NCBI GenBank assembly: GCA_963675755.2
Contig: CAXXMD010000003.1
Coordinates: 2,688,001-2,752,000, forward strand
DNA length: 64,000 nt
Direction: 5' to 3'
From: a bacterium
GTDB lineage: Bacteria; Zhuqueibacterota; Zhuqueibacteria; Residuimicrobiales; Krinioviventaceae
The notes beneath the pieces were generated by a model. That model was given only the letters and a program-made list of their open reading frames with translations, was not told the DNA's origin and searched no databases. A program made the translations under genes and the position numbers. Below, in pieces: positions 1 through 64,000 of the stretch (position 1 is its first letter; each line of letters opens with the position of its first letter).

Positions 1-437
1 GTCTGATACCAGCCTCTGGCGAGCGTGGGTTTTACCTCTAAAATCGTATAATCCGAACCTTGCAGACCTCCCTCGTAAAACTGGATCCAGTCATCCTGCC
101 AGAGTTTAATTCTCAAATCCTCATCATTCATAACTTTGATTGTTCCGAGCAGGGACAAACCGTGCGTTTCCGGGAAACTGCAATAATAGAGACACACCTG
201 TGGGTTCTTTTGGATCTGGTCCATTTTGAGCGAGAGTCGGTTGGTGGACATGTAGGTGATAAATTCATTTTCCTGTGATTTGAAAAAATCTGCCAGTCTT
301 GCAAATTGATCAAGATTATGCAGGTTACCCATAGCACGGGTTTGTGGACAGTTGTTCTCGTCTACTGTGGATACATAGACCAGATCTGCATTCTGCATGA
401 GCTGTATGCACGCTTTTTTTATGGTTTGTTGGTTCAT
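1..437 (-). CDS. pyridoxamine 5'-phosphate oxidase-like / general stress protein (FMN-binding split barrel), 3' end runs off the window
   Basis: Not in the ORF track because it has no stop in the window. Manual translation from ATG 437 (GAGGA RBS upstream) gives MNQQTIKKACIQLMQNADLVYVSTVDENNCPQTRAM...STNRLSLKMDQIQKNPQVCLYYC...GLSLLGTIKV...KLWQDDWIQFYEGG, with the S/TVDxxxxPxxR and KxxQIxxNPxVxL patterns of this family. Confidence 0.8.
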   Translation of the reverse strand, partial: MNQQTIKKACIQLMQNADLVYVSTVDENNCPQTRAMGNLHNLDQFARLADFFKSQENEFITYMSTNRLSLKMDQIQKNPQVCLYYCSFPETHGLSLLGTIKVMNDEDLRIKLWQDDWIQFYEGGLQGSDYTILEVKPTLARGWYQ

Positions 438-482
438 TTCATTCCTCTCGAATCAGTTAGCAAGTTTGATATTTTACCAAGT

Positions 483-1517
483 TTATTTTATAAACAATCC
501 CGCGCCCAGATCAGAGCCCGGGGTTCCTTCTTCCACTTGCAGATATTGTTGAGGTATTCCCATATCCAGGCCCGCGCCTTTGACCAGCTTGATCTCTCCG
601 GATTTTGTTATGTTTTGTTCAATATAGGGCATGTCTGCCCCCGACTCGCTCAGTTCAAAATTGGGACCGCTAAATCCTGAAAAGAATTCGAAATTGTTGA
701 TGATACAATCCCTGATTTTGTATGTTTTTTTATTGTCGTCATTGCGCATAAAGGCGTATTGACACCGTGTAATGATATTGTGATGGAATTCAAAATCCTC
801 TCCGGTCTGGCAGAGCCACACGCCGGAAACGTATCCACCGTCAATAATGCAGTGGGTCATGCTGTTGTTTTTGCTTATGCCGCCATCCGCGTTCCAGAAT
901 ACAACGGCGTTGGCGCAATCGTAAAACACACAGTGATCAATTTGAAGACCGTGGCCATGCACAATGATTGCCACATTCGAGCTGGTTACATACTGACTGC
1001 AGAGAAACATGCATTGCGTAACCACCAGGTCGTCAAGACTTTTACCCAGCCGGTAAACAGGATAATACATGACACCGGGAATGGGTGTGCCGATGAATTT
1101 TAATCCGCGTATCTTGACATGGTCCATTTCTACCTTGAATCCCGATGTTTCAATGTATTTGGCGTTTTCAGGCACAACCGGATTGAGCGTGGATACAATG
1201 ATGGGCATGTCGTTGGGCTTCCAATTGGGATCGTCCGGCAGGATGGCCGCTTCGATGGTCAATGGATTGTCTGACGAGTACCCGGCTTTGCTATTGATAC
1301 TGCATTCTTTATCCAGAGAATAGAGTCCCGGTGCGATTTTGATGGCCGCCGGTGTATCCGCGGTGTTGAGTACATCCACCGCTTTTTGGATGGTTTTAAA
1401 AGGCAGATCGCTGCTGCCAGGATTGGTATCGCTGCCGGTTTTTATGTCTACATAAAGATCACCGGCAACGGATGAACCGGCAAGACAGAGCAGAATGGTA
1501 ATGATTAAGGTTTTCAT
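483..1517 (-). CDS. secreted DUF1565 / right-handed parallel beta-helix protein
   Basis: Signal peptide MKTLIITILLCLAGSSVA, then LYVDIKTGSDTNPGSSDLPFKTIQKAVD...IKIAPGLY (DUF1565-type start) and beta-helix-like repeats (IDHCVFYDC, MTHCIIDG, FHHNIITRC). Confidence 0.75.
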   Translation of the reverse strand: MKTLIITILLCLAGSSVAGDLYVDIKTGSDTNPGSSDLPFKTIQKAVDVLNTADTPAAIKIAPGLYSLDKECSINSKAGYSSDNPLTIEAAILPDDPNWKPNDMPIIVSTLNPVVPENAKYIETSGFKVEMDHVKIRGLKFIGTPIPGVMYYPVYRLGKSLDDLVVTQCMFLCSQYVTSSNVAIIVHGHGLQIDHCVFYDCANAVVFWNADGGISKNNSMTHCIIDGGYVSGVWLCQTGEDFEFHHNIITRCQYAFMRNDDNKKTYKIRDCIINNFEFFSGFSGPNFELSESGADMPYIEQNITKSGEIKLVKGAGLDMGIPQQYLQVEEGTPGSDLGAGLFIK

Positions 1518-49944: not shown

Positions 49945-51732
49945 GTGAGTTTTATGCCTGTTAAAAAAACTACAAAGGAAATTCGTTTAACCGGAGTTGC
50001 TGCTTCGCCCGGTATTGCATTGGGGCCTGTATATTTTATGGGTTCTGATATAGTTTCTGTTGAAGCCAGAAAATTAGAATCGGGAGAAGTAGAATCAGAG
50101 GTTACGAAATTTTGTTCCGCTATTGACAAGTCAAAACAGGATTTACAAGAGCTTGTTCAGCGTACATCACTAACTATTGGTGAAGAAAGCGCAAAAATAT
50201 TTGAAGTTCATCAACTCATGTTGGAAGATGTGATGATTGTTGATGAATCTGTGCGCAAGATTCGCGAAGACAAAGTAAATGCTGATCAGGCATTTCTTGA
50301 AGTCATGGAGCATTTTGAAGTTTCTCTTGAATCTATAGAAGGAGAATATCTCAAAGCGCGTGCTGCAGACATTCGCGATATTAAACGCAGGGTTATCCGG
50401 AACATTCAAGGAGATAAACGACCCTCACTGGCAAGTCTTAAAGAACCCGCAATTATATTTGCCAAAGAATTAACACCTTCAGATGCTGTGAATCTGGAAC
50501 GTGAAAATGTTTTGGGGTTTGCCATGGATTTTGGTGGCAGAACATCTCATACCGCAATTATGGCCAGGGCTATCCGGGTACCCTCTGTTGTTGGTTTGAA
50601 AAAAATTGGACAATTGATTCACAGTGGTGATTTTGTAATTCTTGATGGAAATACTGGATTATTAATTGTAAATCCTACCGAAGAAACTGTGAATGAATAC
50701 CGGAATCGTTTTTCTGATTATAAAATCTTTAAAGAGAAGCTGGAACACCTTAAAGACTTGCCCGCCAGAACACTTGATGGTAAGGATATTGAACTGGCGG
50801 CAAATATAGAGTTCCTTGAAGAAGTTGAAGAAGTTGTAAACGCAGGTGGAGAGGGTGTTGGGCTTTTTAGAACTGAATATTTATATCTTACCAATGAAGA
50901 ACTTCCTTCAGAAGAAGAACAATTTGAGGAATATGTTAGTATAGTTAAAGCGTTGGATAATAAGCCGATTATTATCCGTACTTTTGACTTGGGTGGCGAT
51001 AAAATGCCCAAGTCTATCAACTTACCCCCTGAAACCAATCCATTTTTGGGAGCACGGGGTATCCGTTTGTATCGTGAAAAAGGCGGACAGCAATTATTCA
51101 AAACCCAGTTAAGGGCGATTGTAAGAGCAAGTGCGTATGGCAAGGTCCGGATCATGTTCCCCATGATCTCTTGCATTACCGAAGTCCGTTTTTGCCAAAA
51201 TATGTTGACCGAAGTTAAGCTCGAGTTGAAAAAAGAAGGGCTTCCCTTTTCGGATGATATACCCGTCGGCGCTATGATTGAGGTACCGTCTGCGGCAGTT
51301 ATAGCGGATATTATTGCCAGGGAATGCGATTTCCTCAGTATTGGTACTAACGATCTGGTTCAGTACAGCCTTGCGGTTGACCGCGGTAATGAGCATATTG
51401 CGTATCTTTATCAGCAATATAATCCATCGGTGTTACGTTTGATTAAAAATGTAATTGAAATGGGGCACCAGAAAGGTGTTTGGGTTGGTGTTTGTGGTGA
51501 AATGGCCAGTGACCCCCTGTTAACAATGATATTAATTGGTATGGGACTTGATGAATTCAGTGTGAGTCCGGTATCATTATTGCTGATCAAAGAAATTGTT
51601 CGCCGTGTTGAAGTTGGTGAATGTATTGATCTTGTTGAAGAAATGATTAATTATGATACGGCTGAATCTGTTGAAACCAGCTTGAAAGCGTTTATGAAAC
51701 AAAAATTTTCCGATTTATATCTATTATTTTAA
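49945..51732 (+). CDS. ptsI: phosphoenolpyruvate-protein phosphotransferase (PTS enzyme I)
   Basis: GGRTSHTAIMAR (phospho-His), GVGLFRTEYL, NPFLGARGIR, SIGTNDLVQY, CGEMA. Confidence 0.96.
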   Translation: MSFMPVKKTTKEIRLTGVAASPGIALGPVYFMGSDIVSVEARKLESGEVESEVTKFCSAIDKSKQDLQELVQRTSLTIGEESAKIFEVHQLMLEDVMIVDESVRKIREDKVNADQAFLEVMEHFEVSLESIEGEYLKARAADIRDIKRRVIRNIQGDKRPSLASLKEPAIIFAKELTPSDAVNLERENVLGFAMDFGGRTSHTAIMARAIRVPSVVGLKKIGQLIHSGDFVILDGNTGLLIVNPTEETVNEYRNRFSDYKIFKEKLEHLKDLPARTLDGKDIELAANIEFLEEVEEVVNAGGEGVGLFRTEYLYLTNEELPSEEEQFEEYVSIVKALDNKPIIIRTFDLGGDKMPKSINLPPETNPFLGARGIRLYREKGGQQLFKTQLRAIVRASAYGKVRIMFPMISCITEVRFCQNMLTEVKLELKKEGLPFSDDIPVGAMIEVPSAAVIADIIARECDFLSIGTNDLVQYSLAVDRGNEHIAYLYQQYNPSVLRLIKNVIEMGHQKGVWVGVCGEMASDPLLTMILIGMGLDEFSVSPVSLLLIKEIVRRVEVGECIDLVEEMINYDTAESVETSLKAFMKQKFSDLYLLF

Positions 51733-51805
51733 AATGTTTATCAGCATATTATTGATTTTTATATATTGTAATAAGAAATAGGAAAAGAGAAAGGAGCTGC
51801 CATAA

Positions 51806-52945
51806 ATGTCCGAAATGTTATTTACTTCAGAATCCGTAACTGAGGGACATCCAGACAAAGTTGCAGATCAAATATCCGATGCGGTACTTGACGCTGCTTT
51901 TACTGATGATCCTATGAGCCGGGTTGCCTGTGAAACATTTGTAACTACAGGTTTGGCCCTGGTTGGTGGTGAAATTACCACCGAAACCTATGTTGACATC
52001 CCTCAGGTCGTCAGAAATACCATTAAAGAAATTGGGTATACTGATGCTTCGTATGGGTTCGATTATGAAACCTGTGCTGTGTTAACAACTATTGATCAGC
52101 AATCTGCTGACATTGCTATGGGTGTAGACAGGGATGGAGCAGGTGACCAGGGAATGATGTTTGGTTTTGCCTGTGATGAAACCCCTGAATTGATGCCTTT
52201 GCCAATTATGTTGGCCCAGCAACTGACTCAGCGTTTGGCCCAGGTGAGAAAAGATGGCCTGGTTTCTTATTTGAGACCTGATGGCAAATCTCAGGTATCT
52301 GTGAATTATGTTGATGGCAAACCTGTCTCAATTGATACTGTTGTGATTTCAACCCAGCATAATCCTGATGCAACCAATGAGCAGATAAGAGAAGATATGA
52401 TTGAAAAAGTTATTCTTCCTGTGCTGCCAAAAGAATTGATTGCCAAAGGTGATCCTGTTTATCATATCAATCCTACCGGTCGTTTTGTTGTTGGCGGTCC
52501 ACAAGGTGATGCAGGATTAACCGGTCGTAAAATTATTGTAGACACCTATGGTGGGTATTCCCGTCATGGCGGTGGTGCTTTCTCGGGCAAAGATCCAACG
52601 AAAGTTGACCGTTCAGCCGCTTATGCATCACGTTATATTGCCAAAAATATTGTTGCAGCCGGTATTGCAACAAAATGCGAAATTCAACTGGCATATGCAA
52701 TTGGTGTTGCAGAACCTGTTTCCATTCATGTGGATACATTTGGTACCGGAAAACTGGCAGATGATGCTATTGTTAAACTGGTACGTGAAAATTTTGATCT
52801 TACCCCCAAAGGTATTATCACCATGCTTGATCTGCGTCGTCCTATTTACAAAGCTACTGCAGCTTATGGTCATTTTGGCCGTACCGGCGATGGTTTTACA
52901 TGGGAAAAAACAGATAAAGCAGATGTATTGAAAAAAAGTTTGTAA
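51806..52945 (+). CDS. metK: S-adenosylmethionine synthetase
   Basis: [35 protein letters not shown]. Confidence 0.99.
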
Positions 52946-54741
<1,796 letters not shown>

Positions 54742-55104
54742 GGTGTAAAACTCTAAACTTTGTAACGTATAGGGGCCAATAGATCACCCTACGGGTAAAC
54801 CCTTGCCCCGGCTCTTGTTTCTTTGATTTATTATTTCCCATAATCGAACTCCCCGCTGCAATTACGACATGCAAATTATAAAAATATTAAATACTTGATA
54901 AAACAGTTGATGCTTTGGATAATTTATTGTATATTATAATGCAAATTTAGTATGCTGTTTTTTGCAATTTTGATTTAGTGTAATGAGTTTCATGTTACTT
55001 TCTAATCCAAAATAATCGTTAAGAATGGTAACACTATTCGGAACGATTTTTTTTTGCCAAGAATAGATATACAAAACATTTATTTATTATAAAGGACACG
55101 TTCA

Positions 55105-55305
55105 ATGGAAAATGGAACTGTCAAATGGTTCAATGGCTCAAAAGGCTATGGTTTTATCACTTCAGAAAGTGGTAGTGATGTATTTGTACATTTTAACGCA
55201 ATCGTAGGTGACGGCTACAAGTCACTTGATGAAGGAGACCGGGTTCAGTTTGAAGTAGAGCAGGGACCCAAAGGACCACAAGCAATTAAAGTTTCAAAGA
55301 TATAA
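55105..55305 (+). CDS. cold-shock protein (CspA family)
   Basis: GTVKWFN, KGYGFI (RNP1), DVFVHF (RNP2), GPKGPQA. AAGGA RBS. Confidence 0.97.
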
Positions 55306-55326
55306 TTTAAAATTTTTTCTTTGTAC

Positions 55327-55360
55327 AACCCCAGTCTTTAATAGCTGGGGTTTTTTGTTT
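55327..55360 (+). terminator. intrinsic terminator of the cold-shock gene
   Basis: AACCCCAG-loop-CTGGGGTT followed by TTTTGTTT. Confidence 0.85.
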
Positions 55361-55469
55361 TAGGTGGATTTCCTTTAAATACTGGGAAAAGGGTGTGGTC
55401 AATATCCACCCTAAAAGATTATTTTATTCAGAATCCAATTAGTGGGCAGGTGGCCAATCCCTGGAGCTT

Positions 55470-55744
55470 GCACTGGATAATAATCGTCAGGTTATTTATA
55501 CCGCCGGTGCGAGAAAATTCCCTCCGGAAGCTGCAAACACGGCAATGGCCCGGCAATCCGCTGAACGCGCGGCGTTTATTGACGCGTGCCGCTGGGGAGC
55601 CTATGCGCTAAAATGGAAGGATAATCCTGCATCTCCCGATTATGGTGACATACAAGGCAATCTGCCCAACGCAAAGCTGCTGTACAAAATCGGCTCCGGC
55701 AACGGAGTACAGACGGTTGTTGAGATTGGGTTGATGTATTAGGG
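55470..55744 (+). pseudogene. 5'-truncated duplicate of the 3' half of 54202-54741
   Basis: Gap-free alignment at offset 1001 with 54469-54743. Upstream in-frame TAG at 55440-55442, no signal peptide. Confidence 0.8.
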
Positions 55745-55760
55745 GAGAAGGGAAAAGAGT

Positions 55761-57686
55761 TTAATAGTTATGCTTGGAAGTGTAAAGAATTTTGTGTTTG
55801 TCGTATTCTTTTTTTTCTTTAAATATTTGTGATTTAGGATTAATAATGTCTTCTCTACTGATTAAGTAATGATGTTTTAAAAAAGATTTAATTTTTTGAG
55901 GACAATTTAATTCTTGTATGTTTTGGAATTGATTTATTGCAATTATTTTTTTAGTTATTTCAATTTCGTTTTTCGATAAATTATTGAAATCATCCCACCA
56001 TTTTTGGGTATACCCCTTTTCTTTAAAAAAGAACCTATATAAGATATATGTTTCCGGCATATATAATAGTTTAAAATATTCTTCTTCATTATGACCAAAT
56101 GCTTCATAAAAAAATGATTTACCTTTACCAATTTTACCTTTTGTTGCATTAAGTATTGTCTGTATTGCTCGAATAAATTTTTTATTCCAATGTTTACCAA
56201 TGTAATTTCTGTTTGCGAACCAATTTTGTCCATTGATAGGGTGGTATTTCATTGGAAAAGAATATATGTTTAAATTATATTGTTCACATAATTCAATGTT
56301 AATTTTTAACCGTTGATACAATTCAATTGGTTTATCGTTTTCATTATATAATAAATAATTTGAAAGATTTGTAATTCCATATTTAGCTGCTAGCTCAACA
56401 GCTTTTATATATGTCTTTTCCCACTTCATACTATCAAAAGCGATACGCAATGGTTTTATTGGTATTTCACTTAAAAGTTTCATTTTATATTCGTCAGCAA
56501 CTAAATATCGCGCATCTATCCCTTGGTTAAAATCAACATATCGTTGTTTTGGCATTTTATTTCTATGTTTTTCATAGAGGTCTTTTACTTTAGGATAAAT
56601 TATAATAAGGTTTTCTTTAGTTGATTTATCTTTTGATAATAAGTTTAATGATTTCATTAAGTCATATAGATACTGTTGCTTTGAATTTGGTAGTTTATCA
56701 AGTAAAATGTGTAAAAGATCGTATGATTTATTTATAAATGCTTTGTCATTATAATTTGATTTAAGATTTGCTATTGAAATATCCAATTGATTAGGTTCAA
56801 TATATTTAGAACCTTTTGAGAAACCGCACTCCTTAATTTCTTCAATTATTTGTTCAAAACAATTAGATGCTAAAACATTATTATCTAAGAGTAAAAGATT
56901 TCTTTTTTCACCATATCGTTTTGATGTTGCATTAATTTGTTCTTTAATTGGTATGTAATGTTGGAATTCAGGTTCAAGCTTTGGAACTGCGCAAAAAGCA
57001 CATTGTCGTTTACAACCTCTTGTCATATAACCATAATATGCATTATTTTCTGGATATTTATAATCGATTTCGTCTAGGATTGAATAGTCGAGAGGTAAAG
57101 TGTCAATAATTATTTCATTGTCATCAAGTATTCCTGATTTATCAAGTAAGCCTTCATGAGGTTTAATTCCAGTTTTTTCTTGTAATTCTTTTGCTAAAAC
57201 TGTCGCCAGTACACCACCTACCCAGAGTTCATTTAAATCTTTTACAAGTTTTTTGGCAAACTCAATAGTTTCAATTGTTATTATCCAATGAAAAGTGAAT
57301 AGTGTTGTAATGCAGATTCTGTCCCATTTAGGTTGCTTAAAATAGTGACCTTTTCTGTACAAATTTTTATAATGTTCAAGCCAATAATTTATAGTTATTT
57401 CATATTGTGTTTGTTTTGGTAGTTCAGCCTTAAATGAATTTTTGCCTGTACGGATATATTGGAGTAAACTTGTTTTATAATTTAACCAATCTAATGAGCT
57501 GTCTACTTCATTTAGCGTGGCAATTAACTGATTATTTATATCATTAAGAATGAATTCTTTTAAATCACCTTTATAAAAGGTGACATTGTCACCAAGCATT
57601 CTGTGATAAGAGGCCAACTTCATTAAGCCTATGGGTGGGTATTTATTTTTATAGTTTGGTTCGAGCAGGAGAACGTTTCTTGGCAT
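55761..57686 (-). CDS. radical SAM protein with a B12-binding-like N-terminal domain
   Basis: N-terminus VLLLEPNYKNKYPPIGLMKLASYHRMLGDNV. TRGCKRQCAFCAVP (CxxxCxxC), LLLDNNVLAS, DFNQGIDAR, LRIAFD. Start overlaps the upstream stop (TAATG). Confidence 0.85.
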   Translation of the reverse strand: MPRNVLLLEPNYKNKYPPIGLMKLASYHRMLGDNVTFYKGDLKEFILNDINNQLIATLNEVDSSLDWLNYKTSLLQYIRTGKNSFKAELPKQTQYEITINYWLEHYKNLYRKGHYFKQPKWDRICITTLFTFHWIITIETIEFAKKLVKDLNELWVGGVLATVLAKELQEKTGIKPHEGLLDKSGILDDNEIIIDTLPLDYSILDEIDYKYPENNAYYGYMTRGCKRQCAFCAVPKLEPEFQHYIPIKEQINATSKRYGEKRNLLLLDNNVLASNCFEQIIEEIKECGFSKGSKYIEPNQLDISIANLKSNYNDKAFINKSYDLLHILLDKLPNSKQQYLYDLMKSLNLLSKDKSTKENLIIIYPKVKDLYEKHRNKMPKQRYVDFNQGIDARYLVADEYKMKLLSEIPIKPLRIAFDSMKWEKTYIKAVELAAKYGITNLSNYLLYNENDKPIELYQRLKINIELCEQYNLNIYSFPMKYHPINGQNWFANRNYIGKHWNKKFIRAIQTILNATKGKIGKGKSFFYEAFGHNEEEYFKLLYMPETYILYRFFFKEKGYTQKWWDDFNNLSKNEIEITKKIIAINQFQNIQELNCPQKIKSFLKHHYLISREDIINPKSQIFKEKKEYDKHKILYTSKHNY

Positions 57687-59239
57687 TATTTAAATTCTTC
57701 TTCAATTTTGCATTTTAATTCTTCACCCCTATCTTTTATATCGGGTAACATTAAATCAATTATTTCAAAAACTTTTCTAATGATTTTTTCCTCTTTTTTG
57801 GATAGTTTACTTAGTTTCTGTGAACGATATTTTGTTTTTAAATTTGTATTATTAGTTTTTACTACTTCATCAAAGTTGGTTATTGTTTTTGGATCAACTA
57901 TTTTATTAAATACTCTATTAAGAGCTGGGTTTGAAGAAGCTTTTTCTTCTAACCGTTTAAGATCTTTTTCCTTTTTAATTGCTTCGATTCTGGCTTTTTC
58001 AATATCTTCAATGAATTGTGATTCTTGATTTTTACTTGAAAATGTACCTAAATTTTGTTTTTTTTCATACTCATTTTTAATATTTTTATAATTTTGAATC
58101 CTTTTTACAGCATTTTTAATTTTATTAGCATCATGATATAAACTGTGTAGTTTAGTATAAAAAAAATCTTTTAATTTTTTGTCTAATAAGTTAGATATTT
58201 TGTTTTCGTTAAAATAATCTCGTCGTGAATTAGGAATTAAGTCTGAATGGAAACCATGAATTTCGCCTATAAAGTAAAAATTACCTCTTTGTTCTTTATG
58301 CAATTTTACTAATGTATTTTCTGAACCAATCTGAATATTCCCTTTACGTAGTCTTAATCCACGAGCGCAATTCCCGACAGCAGGTATTTGTTTCTCAAAT
58401 TTTGATATACCGTACCATCCCCATGCAATTATTTCATCTTTATCTTTAATAGTTAATGTTTCTATATCATAAATTTCATCAAATTTTTTATTGTTTGGAG
58501 GTGCACCATCATATAAATAAGTTGAATATGCTTTAAATAATTGCTCTGTGTTAATATAAATACGATATTCATCAAGTGCAAGGTGATTTGCTATTAATCC
58601 TTCATGAATTAAATTTTTAAAAATAAAATGGGAGTTGAAAGGGACTGGGGCAACCATTGACAAATATTCTTCAATATTATTTTTATCCAATAAACTATCG
58701 TTTTTGACATCACACATGATAACTTTAAAATAATGATCATTTTCATCTGCATTGTCTTTGGCAAAATTAATTACAGAATTTACTACAGTTGCTGCATCCA
58801 TATCAATATTACTATCAATTAATTTGTTTTGTAGCTTTTCTGCATCCCAGAGCATAAGATTTTTGACATTTTCACCTTTGAAGCTTGATTCAAAAATAAG
58901 TTTACGACAATACCCCAGACCTCCCAATCTACCTATACCTCTAAATCCTTTGTCTTTTGTTCTATCTTTTGCAGATAGGGCAATATTTGTTAAAGATGAA
59001 GAAAAGTTTTCCGAATTAATGCCTGTTGCATTATCTTCAATAATTATTTGTTTATTATTTTTATCAATAGAAATATGAATGATACCTTCATTTCTATTAG
59101 GAATAATACCAAGCTCAACAGCTTTGTCGATTTGATCTACAGCATTTTGTATATATTCACGATATACAACTCTTGCATCCTCATACATCCCAGATGTCAA
59201 AGTTTCAATAACTGTTTTTCCAATTCTTATATTTGGCAT
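57686..59239 (-). CDS. GHKL-superfamily (Hsp90/MORC-like) ATPase with S5-like domain and C-terminal coiled coil
   Basis: Bergerat motifs REYIQNAVDQID (N box), IEDNATGI (G1), GFRGIGRLGGL (G2). FIGEIH...LIPNSRRDYF. K/E-rich heptad-like C-terminus. Confidence 0.85.
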   Translation of the reverse strand: MPNIRIGKTVIETLTSGMYEDARVVYREYIQNAVDQIDKAVELGIIPNRNEGIIHISIDKNNKQIIIEDNATGINSENFSSSLTNIALSAKDRTKDKGFRGIGRLGGLGYCRKLIFESSFKGENVKNLMLWDAEKLQNKLIDSNIDMDAATVVNSVINFAKDNADENDHYFKVIMCDVKNDSLLDKNNIEEYLSMVAPVPFNSHFIFKNLIHEGLIANHLALDEYRIYINTEQLFKAYSTYLYDGAPPNNKKFDEIYDIETLTIKDKDEIIAWGWYGISKFEKQIPAVGNCARGLRLRKGNIQIGSENTLVKLHKEQRGNFYFIGEIHGFHSDLIPNSRRDYFNENKISNLLDKKLKDFFYTKLHSLYHDANKIKNAVKRIQNYKNIKNEYEKKQNLGTFSSKNQESQFIEDIEKARIEAIKKEKDLKRLEEKASSNPALNRVFNKIVDPKTITNFDEVVKTNNTNLKTKYRSQKLSKLSKKEEKIIRKVFEIIDLMLPDIKDRGEELKCKIEEEFK

Positions 59240-59243
59240 GATT

Positions 59244-60899
59244 TTACTTAAATTGTTTATATAATGGTTTAGGGAATTTTATATTTAATAGAGAACGAAA
59301 TATTGGATTTTGAATAATATATTCACCCTGTTTCAATCTAGTCATCATATTTTTATATACTGGAGGAATAAATCTATAATCGTTTTTTGATATTTCTATT
59401 GCATTGGTGCGACCATATGCATGTGTTGCACAATTCCCTTTTACTCTATCATGTATTGCACTTTTAAATTGTTCTGCAGAAAATAAAATAATTCCTAGCG
59501 ACCTGCCTCTTTCGGTAATATCAATTATTTGTCTAAGAATTGGTGAATTTTTAGGGATATCATTTGAAGCATATTTATTTAATTCATCAATGAAAATGAT
59601 TATCCTTGATGGGATATCTTCTTCAGGGATTCCGTCAAATTGTCCTAATTTCAAATCATAGACTGCTCTCATTACATCGCCAAAAATAAAACTTTGCATC
59701 CCTTCGTCCAATTTTGCAATATCAATAACAAAAATTTCATTTTTTTTAATTGATTTAATACTATCTTGAAGTCTTGTTTCCCTGTCTTGCTCCGATGCTC
59801 TTAGAGCAAAGATATGATTATTTAACGCTTTACGTACAATTCTTTTAAATTTCCTCCAACTTGCTACTGTTATTTCTTTATCCTTAGAAGAACCTGCTTG
59901 GCAATGTTTATCAATTTCGGCTAAAAATTGATCCCAATTTCTAATATTACCAAAATTTCCTTGTTCTGAAATAATATAATTTATTATTGATTCCATAGTC
60001 TGGGCTGGATCGTCAATGTTAGAGAACAGCAAGTCAAGATTTTCTTTGTCATATTCAAAAATATATTTATACCAATATGCTTTATCTAAGTTCGTTTGAT
60101 GTTCAATGAGGTTTTTATCAGCATAGGTGTTAGTATGAATGTTGTCGGCATATGGATAGAAGTATTTTACATGTTTGAATGGTTCATCGTCTAAACCAAG
60201 GTTTAAATAACATTCTTTATCTATTTTTGAGAGTTCATCGTTTGATTCGTCAATTGCTAATAAATCTTTACCTTTAACATTTAACAGTACAAATGCGACA
60301 TTATCTTCTATTTCCATATTTAAATATTTATATTGAATCGCTTTTAGCAAGAACATTGTATATGATGTTTTTGCTGCTAATCCACTTATGCCAGATATAT
60401 TCATGTGAGCTCCTTCTGGCCCTATTAAAAATTGTGAATTAAGATGTATTGGAAGACTTACCTTTTCGTCACTAGAACTTTCATACATTTCTAAATAGCC
60501 ACAAACTAAAGGATTTTTTATATTATCTAATCCCAATGCTTGTCTAATTTCTTGAGCAGTAGCTAAACTAACAGGTTCTCCATCCCTAACTGGAATGTAT
60601 ATATTTTTAGTATTTCCAACAACTTTTGCCCTAACATAGTTCATACCTATTCGTTGTGTGTTAGGTTGTATATTGACATCTCCAAAGTCATTTGAGATAA
60701 AACTTGTAAGATAACTAGCAGTGTCTGTGATATGTGAAATCTCTTCGACAACTCCGTAAGTTATAGATTCATTAATGTGATTAACTTTAATAACATCAAA
60801 TGGATTTAAAATCATATCCTTTGATGTCCAAAAAAAGAAGTCATCAATGGTTGTTGGATTTTTTTCTGTCGCCGCTATTCTACCAATTATTTTTCCCAT
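59244..60899 (-). CDS. herA: HerA-like (FtsK/HerA superfamily) ATPase with N-terminal HAS barrel
   Basis: N-terminal beta-barrel (IIGRIAATE...TYGVVEEI), HMNISGISGLAAKTSY (variant Walker A), LNVKGKD, IIFIDELNKYA (Walker B), ERGRSLGIILFSAEQ (Arg finger/Q motif). Confidence 0.85.
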   Translation of the reverse strand: MGKIIGRIAATEKNPTTIDDFFFWTSKDMILNPFDVIKVNHINESITYGVVEEISHITDTASYLTSFISNDFGDVNIQPNTQRIGMNYVRAKVVGNTKNIYIPVRDGEPVSLATAQEIRQALGLDNIKNPLVCGYLEMYESSSDEKVSLPIHLNSQFLIGPEGAHMNISGISGLAAKTSYTMFLLKAIQYKYLNMEIEDNVAFVLLNVKGKDLLAIDESNDELSKIDKECYLNLGLDDEPFKHVKYFYPYADNIHTNTYADKNLIEHQTNLDKAYWYKYIFEYDKENLDLLFSNIDDPAQTMESIINYIISEQGNFGNIRNWDQFLAEIDKHCQAGSSKDKEITVASWRKFKRIVRKALNNHIFALRASEQDRETRLQDSIKSIKKNEIFVIDIAKLDEGMQSFIFGDVMRAVYDLKLGQFDGIPEEDIPSRIIIFIDELNKYASNDIPKNSPILRQIIDITERGRSLGIILFSAEQFKSAIHDRVKGNCATHAYGRTNAIEISKNDYRFIPPVYKNMMTRLKQGEYIIQNPIFRSLLNIKFPKPLYKQFK

Positions 60900-60914
60900 A
60901 AATTATCCCTATTT

Positions 60915-62081
60915 TTAAAAAAGATTTAAAAAGTATTCATTACTTAAATATTTGCTTTTAATGAATACTTCTGTTAGGTAGACAGGATATAAGTGATTAG
61001 CCCAACGATTATCTTTGCCGTAGCAAACGGGATTTCTTTCATTTATAAGATTTGCACTAATAGTGTCAATTTCTTCAGTTTTTAAACCATATTTTTGTTC
61101 TTGCTCAGAAATTAATATCTTTTCAACTTTAATTATTCCTTCAAATGGGCTTGAAGTATATTTTGCATCTCTAATGCGTAAATACCATATTGAAAATTTT
61201 ACATTTCCTTCAGTCCCTCTTGAAACTTTTGATTCCCACATAAATGCTGGTGTCCGATGATATAATTTTAGTTCAGCAATCTTCTGGGCATTACTATGTC
61301 CTCGAGCATCAATGCACTTTTCTGGATTAAATGATTTTGAAACACCTACTACACATTTGTAGTTACTTTTTATTATTGATAAATCTTTAAAATCACCAGT
61401 TTTCATTGTTTTATACTCTAAAGAACCGTCTTTTAATAAATATGAATCCTCATTGAGTAAATTTTTATAAACAAGAGAAGAAACTATTCTTTTCTCCTGT
61501 TCAATCATTTCATCTTGTATTTTTGCTATTCCAAGGTTTTCATATTTTTCACCTATTTGTAGTTTAATATCAGCATAATCCAATATTTTGCTAAAATTTA
61601 AGCCACGTGTTTTGATGAAATTCTGTTCATTGATTTTGGTTACTAAATTATTAAAGAACAATTTTTTTTTGTTGTCTTTTGATGCATTTTCTGGAACTGC
61701 CATTACTAATTGGTGTTCAATTAGTTTACTTTTTAAATTTTTTCTTTTATCTCGTTCACAACACCCAACTCCTATTTGGCCAGCAATAATCGGGTAAACA
61801 CGGTTATCATAAGCCATATCATCTACTTTATATGTTCTTCTGGAGCCATCAAGAAAATATTTGAAAAGTGGTTGTGAAAATTTTTCTATTTGTTTAGACT
61901 TGTTATAAAGGTGACGAGGAGATGTGATTTTTTCTGATTCACCATATTGCTTTAATGTAAGATTTGGTTGGTCATCATATACTAAATGGGGCATTTCTAT
62001 CCCATCGAAACAATATTTATGAGTTTTATAACTTTTCCCACTTGTTTCAGTTTCAACAAAAGACAATATTTTGTTCAACAT
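60915..62081 (-). CDS. nurA: NurA-like nuclease (RNase H-like fold)
   Basis: YFLDGSRR, LLKDGSL, VVGVSKS, WYLRIR and WANHLYPVYLTE match the two acidic DGS motifs and the C-terminal helix of NurA. Directly upstream of a HerA-like gene. Confidence 0.75.
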   Translation of the reverse strand: MLNKILSFVETETSGKSYKTHKYCFDGIEMPHLVYDDQPNLTLKQYGESEKITSPRHLYNKSKQIEKFSQPLFKYFLDGSRRTYKVDDMAYDNRVYPIIAGQIGVGCCERDKRKNLKSKLIEHQLVMAVPENASKDNKKKLFFNNLVTKINEQNFIKTRGLNFSKILDYADIKLQIGEKYENLGIAKIQDEMIEQEKRIVSSLVYKNLLNEDSYLLKDGSLEYKTMKTGDFKDLSIIKSNYKCVVGVSKSFNPEKCIDARGHSNAQKIAELKLYHRTPAFMWESKVSRGTEGNVKFSIWYLRIRDAKYTSSPFEGIIKVEKILISEQEQKYGLKTEEIDTISANLINERNPVCYGKDNRWANHLYPVYLTEVFIKSKYLSNEYFLNLF

Positions 62082-62266
62082 GTAACCTTCATTTTTAAAA
62101 TCTCAAATGTATGAAAATACGACAAAAAAGATCAAGTATAATATTGTATTATGTTATTTATTGAGTATGAAAAAATAAAATTCACCCCCTCCCAATAATC
62201 AATTATCACTAAATAAAGTGAAAATCCGTAAAAGAAGCAAGATAAATTTAAAATTATAAATCCCGA

Positions 62267-62665
62267 TTATACCCAGTTTTCCACTTTTATCCCTGAAACA
62301 CGATTAAATTCTTTGGTGTTGGCGGTTAACATGATCAGTTTGTGTCTTTTGGCTTGGGCAGCTATCAACAGGTCATTTGCGCCAATGATTTGGCCCTTTA
62401 TTTCAAGCTCTGCACGGATGTTGCCATATTCCATTGCATCCGTGCTGTCAAAATCCAGGATGGTAAGGGGAGAGAGGATTTTTAGTACCGCAGTGAGATT
62501 TTTGGATTTGTGCTGACTTTTTTTCGCCCCGTATATCAGTTCCGCAACAGTGATTGACGATACCCCAAAATCTCGAATGTCTTTACTGGTAAATTTTTTT
62601 TCGAGTGATTTAGATTTTGAATTCATCAAATAGATGAGAATGTTCGTATCAACAAGATATTTCAT
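62267..62665 (-). CDS. vapC: VapC PIN-domain toxin
   Basis: YLVDTNILIY, SSITVAELIYG, IGANDLLIAAQA, TANTKEFNRVSGIKVENW. Confidence 0.95.
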   Translation of the reverse strand: MKYLVDTNILIYLMNSKSKSLEKKFTSKDIRDFGVSSITVAELIYGAKKSQHKSKNLTAVLKILSPLTILDFDSTDAMEYGNIRAELEIKGQIIGANDLLIAAQAKRHKLIMLTANTKEFNRVSGIKVENWV

Positions 62666-62883
62666 TACATTTTGATTTCGGTTAAATTTAAATCATCAAC
62701 ATCCGGAAAATCAACAGCTTCATGTATACCTTCAACAAAATTTGTCCAGGGATCGTCTTGCGGTAAAAGTACCAGTAAATTACCGATTTTATTAATATTA
62801 ACCGTGTCAGCATCCAACCTGTATTCTTTGGGCAAACGTATTGCCTGGCTGTTTCCGGATTGGAAAATTTTTGTAGTTTTCAT
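62665..62883 (-). CDS. vapB: VapB (AbrB/SpoVT-fold) antitoxin
   Basis: TKIFQSGNSQAIRLPKEYRL. Stop overlaps the vapC start (TAATG). Confidence 0.95.
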   Translation of the reverse strand: MKTTKIFQSGNSQAIRLPKEYRLDADTVNINKIGNLLVLLPQDDPWTNFVEGIHEAVDFPDVDDLNLTEIKM

Positions 62884-62893
62884 TTTACACCTC

Positions 62894-62935
62894 TTGTATA
62901 TACATGAATATATACAAATAAGGCCCTAAATGCAA
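62894..62935 (-). promoter_or_regulatory. vapBC promoter with overlapping palindromic operator
   Basis: Minus strand TTGCAT-N17-TATATT. The perfect inverted repeat TTGTATATA-CATGAA-TATATACAA (62894-62917) covers the -10 box. Confidence 0.75.
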
Positions 62936-62975
62936 GAAATTATTTGTTTATATATTTTATTGAATGGGAAAGAAT

Positions 62976-63000
62976 CATGGCGGGCCATTGGCCCACCATG
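62976..63000. terminator. GC-rich hairpin downstream of the AraC gene (terminator or REP-like)
   Basis: CATGGCGGGCCA-T-TGGCCCACCATG, 19 bp after the minus-strand stop at 63020. Confidence 0.5.
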
Positions 63001-63019
63001 TATTGGGGAAAAGGGTACT

Positions 63020-63922
63020 CTAGTTCATTGGTTGGTTTCTAAATTCTATGGGACTCATGCCCACTTCTTTTTTAAACAAGCGGGAAAAGTAGGGCTGGTT
63101 TTCAAAACCTAGCTCATGAGCAATATCGGCAATGCTTTTATTATCTGCAATTAGCATGTTTTTCGCTTGTGAAACAACATGCAAATGGATCAATTCAAGG
63201 GCTGTTTTGCCTGTTTCATGTTTCAACAAGTCGCTCATGTATTTGGGAGAGATATAAAGTTGCTCGGCCATATATTTAACGGAGGGCAAGCCTTTTTCTT
63301 CAGCCTCGCCGCTTTCAAAATACGAGTTTAAATGCTCGGTGAATTTTGTTACGGTTGAACCCGAGAGTTGTTTACGGTCAATAAACTGACGCTTGTAAAA
63401 GCGTTGAGCGTATTTTAACAGGGTGTCCAGATGAGAGAGAATGATTGTTTTGCTGAATTCATCGGGATTGTTGTAATACTCCATTTTTATCTTGTTGTAT
63501 ACAGACCACATGATCTCTTTTTCTCTGGGAGTAAGGTGGAGTGCCTCATTAATTTCATAATCAAAAAAGTTGTATTTTTTGATTTCATTATACAACGGAT
63601 GACCTATTAAATAATCTTCATGCAGGTAGATTGAAAATCCATCTTCCTTAATTACCACATCGTGAATGGATAGCTTTTGTCTGGGTTTGAAAAAATACAT
63701 GAATCCTTTATTGCTGTCATATTTTGTTTTCCCATACAAAAATTCACCGCTTTCAACTTTTTTAAAGCACATAACATAAAAGTTATAAGAGACCTGTTGG
63801 TTTATCAGGCAGGTGCTGCAACTATTGAATTCTACCAACCCTAAAAAAGGATTTTCAGGGGCTGGTGCACCTTCATGTTCGTACAGGTCACCAATATTTT
63901 CAAAATGTAACAAATTTTCCAT
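63020..63922 (-). CDS. AraC family transcriptional regulator
   Basis: LPSVKYMAEQLYISPKYMSDLLKHETGKTA and IADIAHELGFENQPYFSRLFKKEVGMSP (double HTH). Confidence 0.95.
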   Translation of the reverse strand: MENLLHFENIGDLYEHEGAPAPENPFLGLVEFNSCSTCLINQQVSYNFYVMCFKKVESGEFLYGKTKYDSNKGFMYFFKPRQKLSIHDVVIKEDGFSIYLHEDYLIGHPLYNEIKKYNFFDYEINEALHLTPREKEIMWSVYNKIKMEYYNNPDEFSKTIILSHLDTLLKYAQRFYKRQFIDRKQLSGSTVTKFTEHLNSYFESGEAEEKGLPSVKYMAEQLYISPKYMSDLLKHETGKTALELIHLHVVSQAKNMLIADNKSIADIAHELGFENQPYFSRLFKKEVGMSPIEFRNQPMN

Positions 63923-64000
63923 AACTCACACCTTGTGTATTTCCATTCATACTTATACTACAAATAATGTAATTAAATTAAAATAAAATTCTGCTTTTTT

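Follow-up and report, generated by a model that had tools for sequence, protein, structure and literature searches.

A candidate DNA-marking pair of a GHKL ATPase and a radical-SAM enzyme in a NurA-like/HerA cassette of a bacterium of the Krinioviventaceae

Among arrangements that have been studied, the nearest by analogy to the locus described here appears to be the tdtA operon of the Thermus thermophilus element ICETh1, which, in the available part of its description, places the Tth111II restriction enzyme, NurA, TdtA/HerA and an N4/N6 methylase in an island of low guanine-plus-cytosine (GC) content, and whose NurA-TdtA operon has a demonstrated function in DNA donation, not in defence (PMC5365140). 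We analysed a 64,000-nt stretch of forward-strand sequence, called the window throughout, from a bacterium of the Krinioviventaceae (assembly GCA_963675755.2, contig CAXXMD010000003.1, positions 2,688,001 to 2,752,000), and found in it a four-gene minus-strand operon that encodes, in this order, a NurA-like nuclease candidate, a HerA-type ATPase, a GHKL/GHL ATPase and, as the last gene, a radical S-adenosylmethionine (SAM) enzyme, with gaps of 15, 4 and -1 nt. As far as the available part of the Thermus description goes, both loci are four-gene operons of mobile elements built around a pair of a NurA or NurA-like and a HerA-family protein, with known or putative DNA-cutting and DNA-marking enzymes and in a low-GC island, but the window has a GHL ATPase and a radical-SAM enzyme where Thermus has the restriction enzyme and the methylase.

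Other described systems share parts of this design. Sir2-HerA, DUF4297-HerA and Menshen (NsnABC) combine a HerA-family or ABC-type ATPase with a nuclease-type effector, as the window cassette with its NurA-like candidate would, whereas Sir2, DUF4297 and the ParB-DUF262 protein NsnA are missing from the window cassette. DISARM (DrmA/DrmB/DrmC plus methylase) and Dpd (DpdA-C plus DpdD-K) are linked to it through its relatives, which adjoin DrmA/DrmB in one case and DpdB-like and DpdE-like genes in others (L090, L098 and further loci), at the place of the DNA-modifying genes of those systems; the window itself has none of these partners and no methyltransferase or transglycosylase, its partners being NurA-HerA. 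Radical-SAM enzymes are also established in immunity, among them the prokaryotic viperins, which make chain terminators. In Ophion (OpnA-C), an anti-phage system whose product is given as unknown in the available part of its report, the radical-SAM enzyme is paired with PHP and PRTase proteins, in contrast to the GHKL, HerA and NurA-like partners in the window (bioRxiv 10.1101/2025.09.30.679545). In both viperins and Ophion the radical-SAM enzyme is essential to the defence system, as we propose for the window cassette.

The cassette most likely marks or attacks DNA in conflicts between bacteria and viruses. The account that we prefer, and to which we would give somewhat less than an even chance, is one of a restriction-modification-like defence system in which the GHL ATPase and the radical-SAM enzyme make up the DNA-marking module and NurA-HerA the degrading arm. 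We favour it because the pair adjoins four different modules of ATPase or helicase plus nuclease and its relatives stand at the places of the modifying genes of DISARM and Dpd, and because phage versions adjoin DNA methylases and the family is distributed over hosts and phages as is known for DNA methyltransferases, Dnd and Dpd.

The radical-SAM family is large. Matches to the 641-aa protein at E<=1e-3 numbered 7,610 of 8,000 scored candidates from a collection of 5.8 billion proteins, and the representative library at 50% identity gave 1,640 matching clusters at E<=1e-3, 262 of them at E<=1e-30; relatives were encoded in 327 of 348 pattern-matched stretches of species genomes. The best 120 homologues (563-696 aa, 57-75% identity) are named, if at all, 'hypothetical' or 'radical SAM domain-containing', and in the longer relatives (677-824 aa) Pfam found only Radical_SAM and B12-binding, the fusions giving no functional clue. 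We examined the best 80 of the 327 genome loci, with neighbours sought by tblastn, and recovered the radical-SAM gene in 80, GHKL in 79, HerA in 70 and NurA-like in 68, always in the order NurA-HerA-GHKL-radical SAM; several of the missing neighbours fall at loci cut by contig ends. These loci span Bacteroidota, Ignavibacteria, Bacillota, Desulfobacterota, Melainabacteria, Lentisphaerota, Alphaproteobacteria, Deferribacterota and one archaeon. For the 62 loci with a definable radical-SAM start, the GHKL gene lay directly upstream in 46, with an overlap or a gap of <=15 nt in 44 of these. The other arrangement (15 of 62) has a 320-377-aa protein directly upstream, preceded by a divergent 555-aa GHKL protein, and one locus had neither; L019, L051, L060 and L068 showed the second arrangement only, with no NurA or HerA in view. 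Judged from sequence, the GHKL and radical-SAM pair is the constant core, because it persists where NurA-HerA is missing or the arrangement differs. The second module itself (a 555-aa GHKL protein with weak MzaB/Tiamat/sacsin-like matches, and the 320-377-aa protein with a weak match to the NCBIfam PP_RS20740 family) was seen at 14-15 loci, L005, L023, L032, L034, L035, L040, L045, L051, L060, L067 and L068 among them, and either sits between the radical-SAM gene and the first GHKL gene or takes the whole place of NurA-HerA-GHKL.

Across its relatives the pair was joined to four modules of ATPase or helicase plus nuclease, namely NurA-HerA, NsnB/C-like, DrmA/B and SNF2/ParB-like. In 15 of the 80 loci, an NsnB-like gene (PADLOC 3.3e-65) and an NsnC-like gene stood immediately upstream of the pair, which takes the third-component position where Menshen, in the accessible part of its description, carries its sensor gene (PMC12065111). 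One locus (L094) combined DrmA (3.1e-161), DrmB (1e-52), a protein with NERD and SF1-helicase parts, radical SAM, GHKL and an Mrr-like nuclease, and the DISARM methylase classes PF02384 and PF00145 were not found anywhere in its 38-kb record. A DndB/DpdB-like gene lay directly upstream of the radical-SAM gene at L090, L100 and L101, and seven loci carried a SNF2 (DpdE/ZorD-like) helicase, a ParB-like gene, radical SAM and GHKL. Single insertions were also found, a DarT-Macro fusion between the GHKL and radical-SAM genes of L050 and an HNH gene within the cassette of L003.

Viral relatives were of several kinds. Full-length or near-full-length relatives occurred on nine viral contigs, six of them with the whole cassette, and short forms, for which PADLOC holds no family, matched at least 530 viral-contig stretches as well as phrog_9298 (3.7e-33). 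Among 88 viral loci examined, 20 had a GHKL gene and 11 had NurA plus HerA, leaving 68 without GHKL; at the short-form loci L090, L093-L098 and L101 the order was reversed, radical SAM preceding GHKL, so that the pair evidently survives rearrangement. Distant standalone forms of ~290-510 aa were located in phage replication or packaging regions: between UDG-exonuclease and PolA genes, with a Dam methylase and a clamp loader as neighbours (L102), between DnaB and an N6/N4 methylase (L139), and between SSB and terminase (L148). In the first of these, a phage-like contig (L102:5474-9968), the radical-SAM gene separates a fusion of UDG and 3'-5' exonuclease from a family-A polymerase domain, splitting what is usually a single PolA unit, and in another viral contig (L099:6896-9606) a different radical-SAM gene with a B12-binding part (411 aa; TIGR04013/TIGR03960-like) stands directly behind the short-form one. 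An earlier reading of the window made from sequence only had described shorter relatives as common in phages, which holds for metagenomic viral contigs only, because cultured phage records rarely match (7 of 50,697, one of the seven covering most of the protein). Its suggestion of a DNA-linked role fits the contexts found here (NurA-HerA, DrmA/DrmB, DpdB/DndB-like genes, and phage replication modules with DNA methylases).

The radical-SAM gene itself is clearly real. The open reading frame that the sequence-only reading had quoted runs from ATG to stop over the quoted span and lies on the minus strand, which had been left unstated, and every motif quoted from it was recovered: YPPIGLMKLASYHRMLGDNV (residues 16-35), WDRICITTLFTFHW (121-134), VGGVLAT (156-162), LLDNNVLAS (266-274) and DFNQGIDAR (385-393). 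The cluster motif reads CKRQCAFC (C225/C229/C232). In an alignment of 40 family sequences (A1), which was used for the AlphaFold model and for column conservation, C225 and C229 were invariant and C232 was present in 39 sequences, the exception being an X in L030. Beyond these, the next best cysteine was conserved in 53% of the alignment, and C125, the sole N-terminal cysteine, in 40% of sequences.

The AlphaFold model (mean pLDDT 91, pTM 0.86) has six barrel strands (216-219, 263-266, 384-386, 413-415, 440-447 and 473-480). Comparison by VIA-align gave AprD4 at Z 15.3 (root-mean-square deviation 3.4, 349 residues aligned), TsrM at 13.7, MgmA at 13.7 and TokK at 12.9, followed by MiaB (12.0), CysS (11.8), RimO (11.3) and OxsB (11.3); Foldseek neighbours agreed, and all have an N-terminal Rossmann/cobalamin-binding-type domain followed by a radical-SAM barrel. 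Structural matches to such enzymes spanned residues 1-550 and scored Z 11-15 at full length, against Z 7-8 for the barrel-only matches to PFL-AE, QueE, viperin, LipA and HemN. The first 190 residues aligned with cobalamin-binding domains of MetH, methylmalonyl-CoA mutase and corrinoid proteins (Z 6.7-8.9), which bears out the B12-binding-like N-terminus that had been proposed from the letters. The model thus predicts a class B-type N-terminal domain, a fold that does not imply cobalamin binding; AprD4, the top structural match with the same domain, works without cobalamin. Pfam B12-binding (PF02310) did not match the window protein and, among ten distant relatives, hit three, each below threshold.

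The window family shares its two-domain architecture with AprD4 (6fd2), TsrM (6wte), MgmA (9ccb), TokK (7kdx), CysS (9n1b) and OxsB (5ul2), at Z 11.3-15.3 over ~330-370 residues and Foldseek E-values of 3e-6 to 1e-3. It differs from them in sequence (10-17% identity), in both insertions, which have no counterpart there, and apparently in the C-terminal helical domain as well, in its own motifs (EPNYKNKYPPIGLMK, LLLDNNVLAS, VDFNQGxDAR and SFPMKYHP), and in genomic context, which is DNA and defence genes for the window family and antibiotic or cofactor biosynthesis for the others. For the window protein, Pfam Radical_SAM (PF04055) reached 27.9 bits against a gathering score of 29.5, so membership of the superfamily rests on the cysteine motif and the fold; many homologues carry a precomputed PF04055 label, and we read the shortfall as divergence that does not outweigh motif and fold. 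With the cluster motif and the TIM barrel both in place, the protein is a member of the radical-SAM superfamily, and more closely a radical-SAM protein with a B12-binding-like domain from an uncharacterised family. Searches against solved structures by sequence, with the single protein and with a profile, returned only spurious matches (acetyltransferase and tubulin cofactor, E 0.01-0.1). The protein is basic (isoelectric point 9.05), with a net charge of +9 to +12 on the second half of the barrel.

Two named families were tried and rejected. The only NCBIfam match was the RimO model TIGR01125 at 17.9 bits against 356.95; only the three cluster cysteines are conserved, so there is no three-cysteine auxiliary cluster and a MiaB/RimO assignment, which the sequence-only reading had named as an outcome that would refute it, fails, and Pfam matched no TRAM domain in the window protein. 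Viperin/pVip was rejected likewise: PADLOC gave no match, viperin lacks an N-terminal Rossmann domain, and the structural match is at barrel level only (Z 7.5).

The two helical insertions noted at first reading are real and sharply bounded, although they measure ~71 and ~77 aa and not the 80 and 90 aa given then. When MAFFT aligned the 641-aa protein and 21 shorter relatives that the representative search had yielded, gaps ran at ~45-115 for the first and ~297-378 for the second, and the model places helices at 42-61, 67-80 and 96-111 in the first and at 300-309, 314-331, 334-346 and 357-374 in the second. Sizes fall into tiers of 447-484 aa (neither insertion), 533-594 aa (lacking residues 45-115 only) and 620-690 aa (both), and the protein is therefore unusually long compared with its shorter paralogues only, 620-690 aa being the norm within its own family. 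With one or two exceptions, the 21 shorter relatives keep the CxxxCxxC, DNN and FNQGxD motifs. Conservation is lowest in the insertions, with a mean column identity of 0.46 in the first and 0.58 in the second where the core reaches 0.70-0.84, and both are no more than mildly basic; that they bind nucleic acid or partner proteins, as suggested at first reading, is conjecture. Within the second, N299 and N313 are invariant and Y341, L349 and K357 are >=90% conserved in A1. Positions of all features are collected in Table 1.

Table 1. Features of the cassette, its last gene and its surroundings. Positions are those of the window unless given as residues (res) of the radical-SAM enzyme.
Feature	Position	Strand	Basis or remark
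Radical-SAM enzyme gene	55761..57686	-	ATG-to-stop ORF (open reading frame), 641 aa
Rossmann/B12-binding-like domain	res 1-190	-	Model; interrupted by insertion 1
Insertion 1 (res 45-115), helical, inside Rossmann-like domain	57342..57554	-	Missing in 21/21 shorter relatives
Partial (beta/alpha)6 barrel	res ~210-525	-	Model; interrupted by insertion 2
CxxxCxxC cluster motif (C225, C229, C232; aromatic F231 before last Cys)	56991..57014	-	Alignment A1
Insertion 2 (res 299-375), four helices, between barrel beta2 (LLLDNN) and beta3 (VDFNQG)	56562..56792	-	Missing in 13/21 shorter relatives
C-terminal helical domain	res 526-615	-	Model
GHKL/GHL ATPase, 517 aa	57686..59239	-	Pfam HATPase_c_3 5.8e-12
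HerA-type FtsK/HerA-superfamily ATPase, 551 aa	59244..60899	-	Profile vs PDB: Deinococcus radiodurans HerA 7f6d_B, E 2.4e-46
NurA-like nuclease candidate, 388 aa	60915..62081	-	Directly upstream of HerA; Atlas feature search
VapBC-like pair: PIN-domain protein (132 aa, Pfam PIN 1.3e-22) and overlapping MazE/AbrB-type antitoxin (72 aa)	62267-62883	-	Pfam
First copy of 275-nt direct repeat	54469-54743		3' end of 179-aa gene (54202-54741); copies 1001 nt apart
Second copy of 275-nt direct repeat, left island edge	55470..55744		87% identical to first copy; abuts radical-SAM stop codon

Turning to the neighbours, the overlap of the enzyme gene with the GHKL gene, read earlier as translational coupling, was confirmed at the sequence TAATG, in which the GHKL stop and the radical-SAM start have one base in common. 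The GHKL protein scored 46.2 bits with HATPase_c_3 against a cut-off of 25 and matched HtpG at 4.3e-11 in a profile search of the PDB, and it consists of a Bergerat ATPase plus transducer domain (residues 5-369), a long coiled coil (347-435) and C-terminal helices. Its model (pLDDT 86.8) was closest over residues 5-369 to GRP94 (Z 21.2), TRAP1 (19.8), SMCHD1 (18.9), MORC2/3 (17.2) and MutL (15.2) by VIA. With E28, N32, D35, D69, G73 and G98-G103 invariant, the ExxxNxxD, DxGxG-type and GxxGxG motifs and an S5-like transducer are all present, and the protein belongs to the GHKL/GHL group; no nuclease domain was seen in it and the Hsp90 C-terminal domain was not matched. A complex prediction for the radical-SAM enzyme (1-620) with the GHKL protein (1-380) scored 0.27 and 0.20 against a mark of 0.32 and carries no weight either way, and it is conserved adjacency that suggests a joint function of the two.

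The two genes further upstream were not part of the sequence-only reading. By homology to a characterised HerA and by its Walker motifs, the 551-aa protein qualifies as a HerA: Walker A (G170-S179, GISGLAxKTS) and Walker B (D438/E439) are invariant, and PADLOC gave a weak mad8 match (3.3e-9). The 388-aa protein has no Pfam or NCBIfam family, and its sole PDB profile match, a weak one, was NurA 7f6d_H (E 0.34), from the same entry as the HerA match; the Atlas feature search led to a 'NurA domain-containing' cluster (score 0.96, 222 of 256 features in common). Its residues D78-G79-S80 and D218-G219-S220-L221 are invariant, and these DGS and DGSL motifs may correspond to those of the NurA active site. 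At E<=0.01, no PADLOC-DB v2.0.0 family was matched by the radical-SAM enzyme, the GHKL ATPase or the NurA-like protein.

That the locus is an island, a point likewise absent from that reading, is plain from its composition, with 26-30% GC across the operon against 37-45% in the flanks, where the genes are housekeeping ones (PTS components, MetK, AdoHcy hydrolase and an AraC regulator). The radical-SAM gene was not found in a 100%-complete genome of the same genus (G001), and only one of the 40 relatives searched (G014) carried a true homologue, with 49% identity and at a contig end; the match in G007 (4.2e-5) is a distant radical-SAM match only. Synteny with G001, at 92% identity, stops at window position 55742, 19 nt past the radical-SAM stop codon. 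It runs through both copies of the direct repeat and then breaks, and the repeat site therefore looks like an insertion hotspot common to both genomes, with different cargo in each. In the 1-kb spacer between the copies (55045-55305), ~200 nt match two other places in G001 with 72-73% identity, which makes this stretch a dispersed repeat. Within the window no right-hand island boundary was found; there was no tRNA gene in 50000-64000 that would point to tRNA-linked integration, and the scanned part of the window showed neither a conjugation gene nor an integrase gene. A promoter scan was uninformative (46 sites, 44.7 expected by chance). The VapBC-like pair directly adjoins the cassette on its upstream side, where GC content is still low. 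On the other side, MetK and S-adenosylhomocysteine hydrolase (51806-54220, +) are convergent to the radical-SAM gene at ~1.5 kb, and their proximity to a SAM-using enzyme looks coincidental because GC content and conservation in G001 mark both as core genes. From its sequence context, we consider the cassette mobile, accessory and horizontally acquired.

If the pair marks DNA, the radical-SAM protein would be the catalytic subunit of a two-gene core, which a HerA motor and a NurA-like nuclease complete here to a four-gene conflict cassette, acquired horizontally and directed against phages or mobile DNA. A single [4Fe-4S] cluster with SAM would yield a 5'-deoxyadenosyl radical, possibly with cobalamin in the Rossmann-like domain, and the radical would lead to a covalent mark on a DNA base or sugar that serves as a self/non-self label. 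The GHL ATPase, acting as an ATP-driven dimeric clamp of the Hsp90/MORC/MutL type, would engage DNA and work with the radical-SAM enzyme, and NurA-HerA would supply an ATP-driven degrading arm, for which NsnB/NsnC-like, DrmA/DrmB or SNF2/ParB-like modules would stand in elsewhere. A more specific form of this proposal is that the pair writes a previously unknown radical-chemistry DNA modification, such as C-methylation or another C-H functionalisation of base or deoxyribose, as a self/non-self label, that defence islands couple the mark to NurA-HerA or to Menshen-, DISARM- or Dpd-like modules, and that the short forms of phages and mobile elements protect their own DNA; stated so fully, it is possible but on the doubtful side.

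Several points weigh against a DNA-marking role. The substrate and product of the enzyme are proposed by analogy, and the best-matching structures belong to enzymes whose targets are small molecules, proteins or tRNA and not DNA. We know of no radical-SAM enzyme that writes a protective DNA mark; spore photoproduct lyase repairs DNA and does not mark it. A recognisable sequence-specificity (target recognition) domain was not identified, and the insertions are variable, not hypervariable. In structure the GHKL protein comes nearest to the Hsp90 chaperones, and these are not DNA clamps; the only known defence gene beside the window cassette is the toxin-antitoxin pair. The DISARM-like locus L094 is a single example that ends at a contig end, with a PF01555 methylase 19 kb away in the record, and the viral-contig loci may be prophage cargo and not phage genes.

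The alternative that survives best, though we think it unlikely, is that the radical-SAM enzyme acts like viperin or OxsB and turns a nucleotide into an antiviral analogue or another toxic product, with the GHL protein as infection sensor or regulator, NurA-HerA as a second, DNA-degrading effector and no marking of self. Radical-SAM defence enzymes that make chain terminators exist in the viperins, Ophion is a further radical-SAM defence system, and among the structural neighbours are a radical dehydratase, AprD4, and an enzyme with deoxyadenosine phosphates as substrates, OxsB. Two-gene modules of GHKL and radical SAM can stand without a nuclease partner, and the Menshen-like loci put the pair at the sensor-gene place. 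The recurrent partners, however, are those typical of modification-linked systems (DrmA/B, DpdB/DndB-like, SNF2/ParB-like and NurA-HerA), the viperin match does not extend beyond the barrel, and a host-toxic product makes little sense for phage homologues that adjoin DNA methylases in replication modules.

Repair or transfer of DNA is a distinctly weaker candidate: NurA-HerA would resect, the MutL/MORC-like ATPase would handle DNA and the radical-SAM enzyme would reverse or process a lesion as spore photoproduct lyase does, or the cassette would export DNA as in Thermus transjugation. Repair analogues can be named for all four components, the HerA protein is closest to that of Deinococcus, MutL N-terminal domains match the GHKL model, and the Thermus NurA-TdtA operon acts in DNA donation according to the available part of its description (PMC5365140). 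Set against this are the patchy, strain-variable distribution and the low-GC island, the known defence genes embedded in the operon at other loci, and the failure to see a conjugation or integrase gene in the scanned part of the window.

Slightly less probable again is a protein-directed role, in which the radical-SAM enzyme would modify its GHKL, HerA or NurA partner post-translationally, or would depend for its folding or cluster loading on the Hsp90-like ATPase as a dedicated chaperone, a dependence that the sequence-only reading had already suggested. The start/stop overlap, the near-constant adjacency of the two genes, the closeness of the GHKL model to Hsp90-family chaperones and the presence of the protein modifiers MgmA and RimO among the structural neighbours all speak for it, but phage homologues stand alone without a GHKL partner at 68 of the 88 viral loci, the coiled coil of the GHKL protein is MORC/SMCHD1-like and its model found no match for an Hsp90 C-terminal domain, and a 640-aa enzyme kept just to mature one partner would be uncommon. 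A housekeeping RNA or protein modifier of the MiaB/RimO or class-B methylase type that adjoins the operon by chance is close to refuted, for although MiaB and RimO are among the fold matches and RimO is the sole, weak NCBIfam match, that match falls far below its cut-off of 357, the N-terminal cysteine triad and other auxiliary-cluster cysteines are not conserved, the gene is absent from 39 of the 40 relatives searched, and the operon partnership is kept across phyla.

We found no description of the NurA-HerA-GHKL-radical-SAM cassette or of the enzyme family in the searchable literature, although subscription journals or supplementary tables may hold one; the accessible parts of published work on the Dnd reappraisal, Tiamat, archaeal dark matter and Deinococcus RecJ-like proteins had the relevant terms in unrelated passages only. 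In kind, the cassette would belong to a known type of multi-gene defence, an ATPase-nuclease pair plus a modifying enzyme. It is compact (6.3 kb) and easy to test, and even if the enzyme made an antiviral analogue or served a repair machine, its chemistry would be new ground and the four-gene cassette undescribed. Should the pair indeed mark DNA, a large, phylum-spanning family, with over 7,600 homologues, members in at least 327 species-level genomes and short forms on hundreds of viral contigs, would be performing radical chemistry on DNA in the conflict between viruses and their hosts. Bacterial NurA-HerA pairs would gain a defined anti-invader role and Hsp90/MORC-like ATPases a function in prokaryotic immunity, and restriction-modification biology would gain a new DNA mark and a new enzyme class, the mark being a new epigenetic class parallel to methylation, phosphorothioation and 7-deazaguanine.

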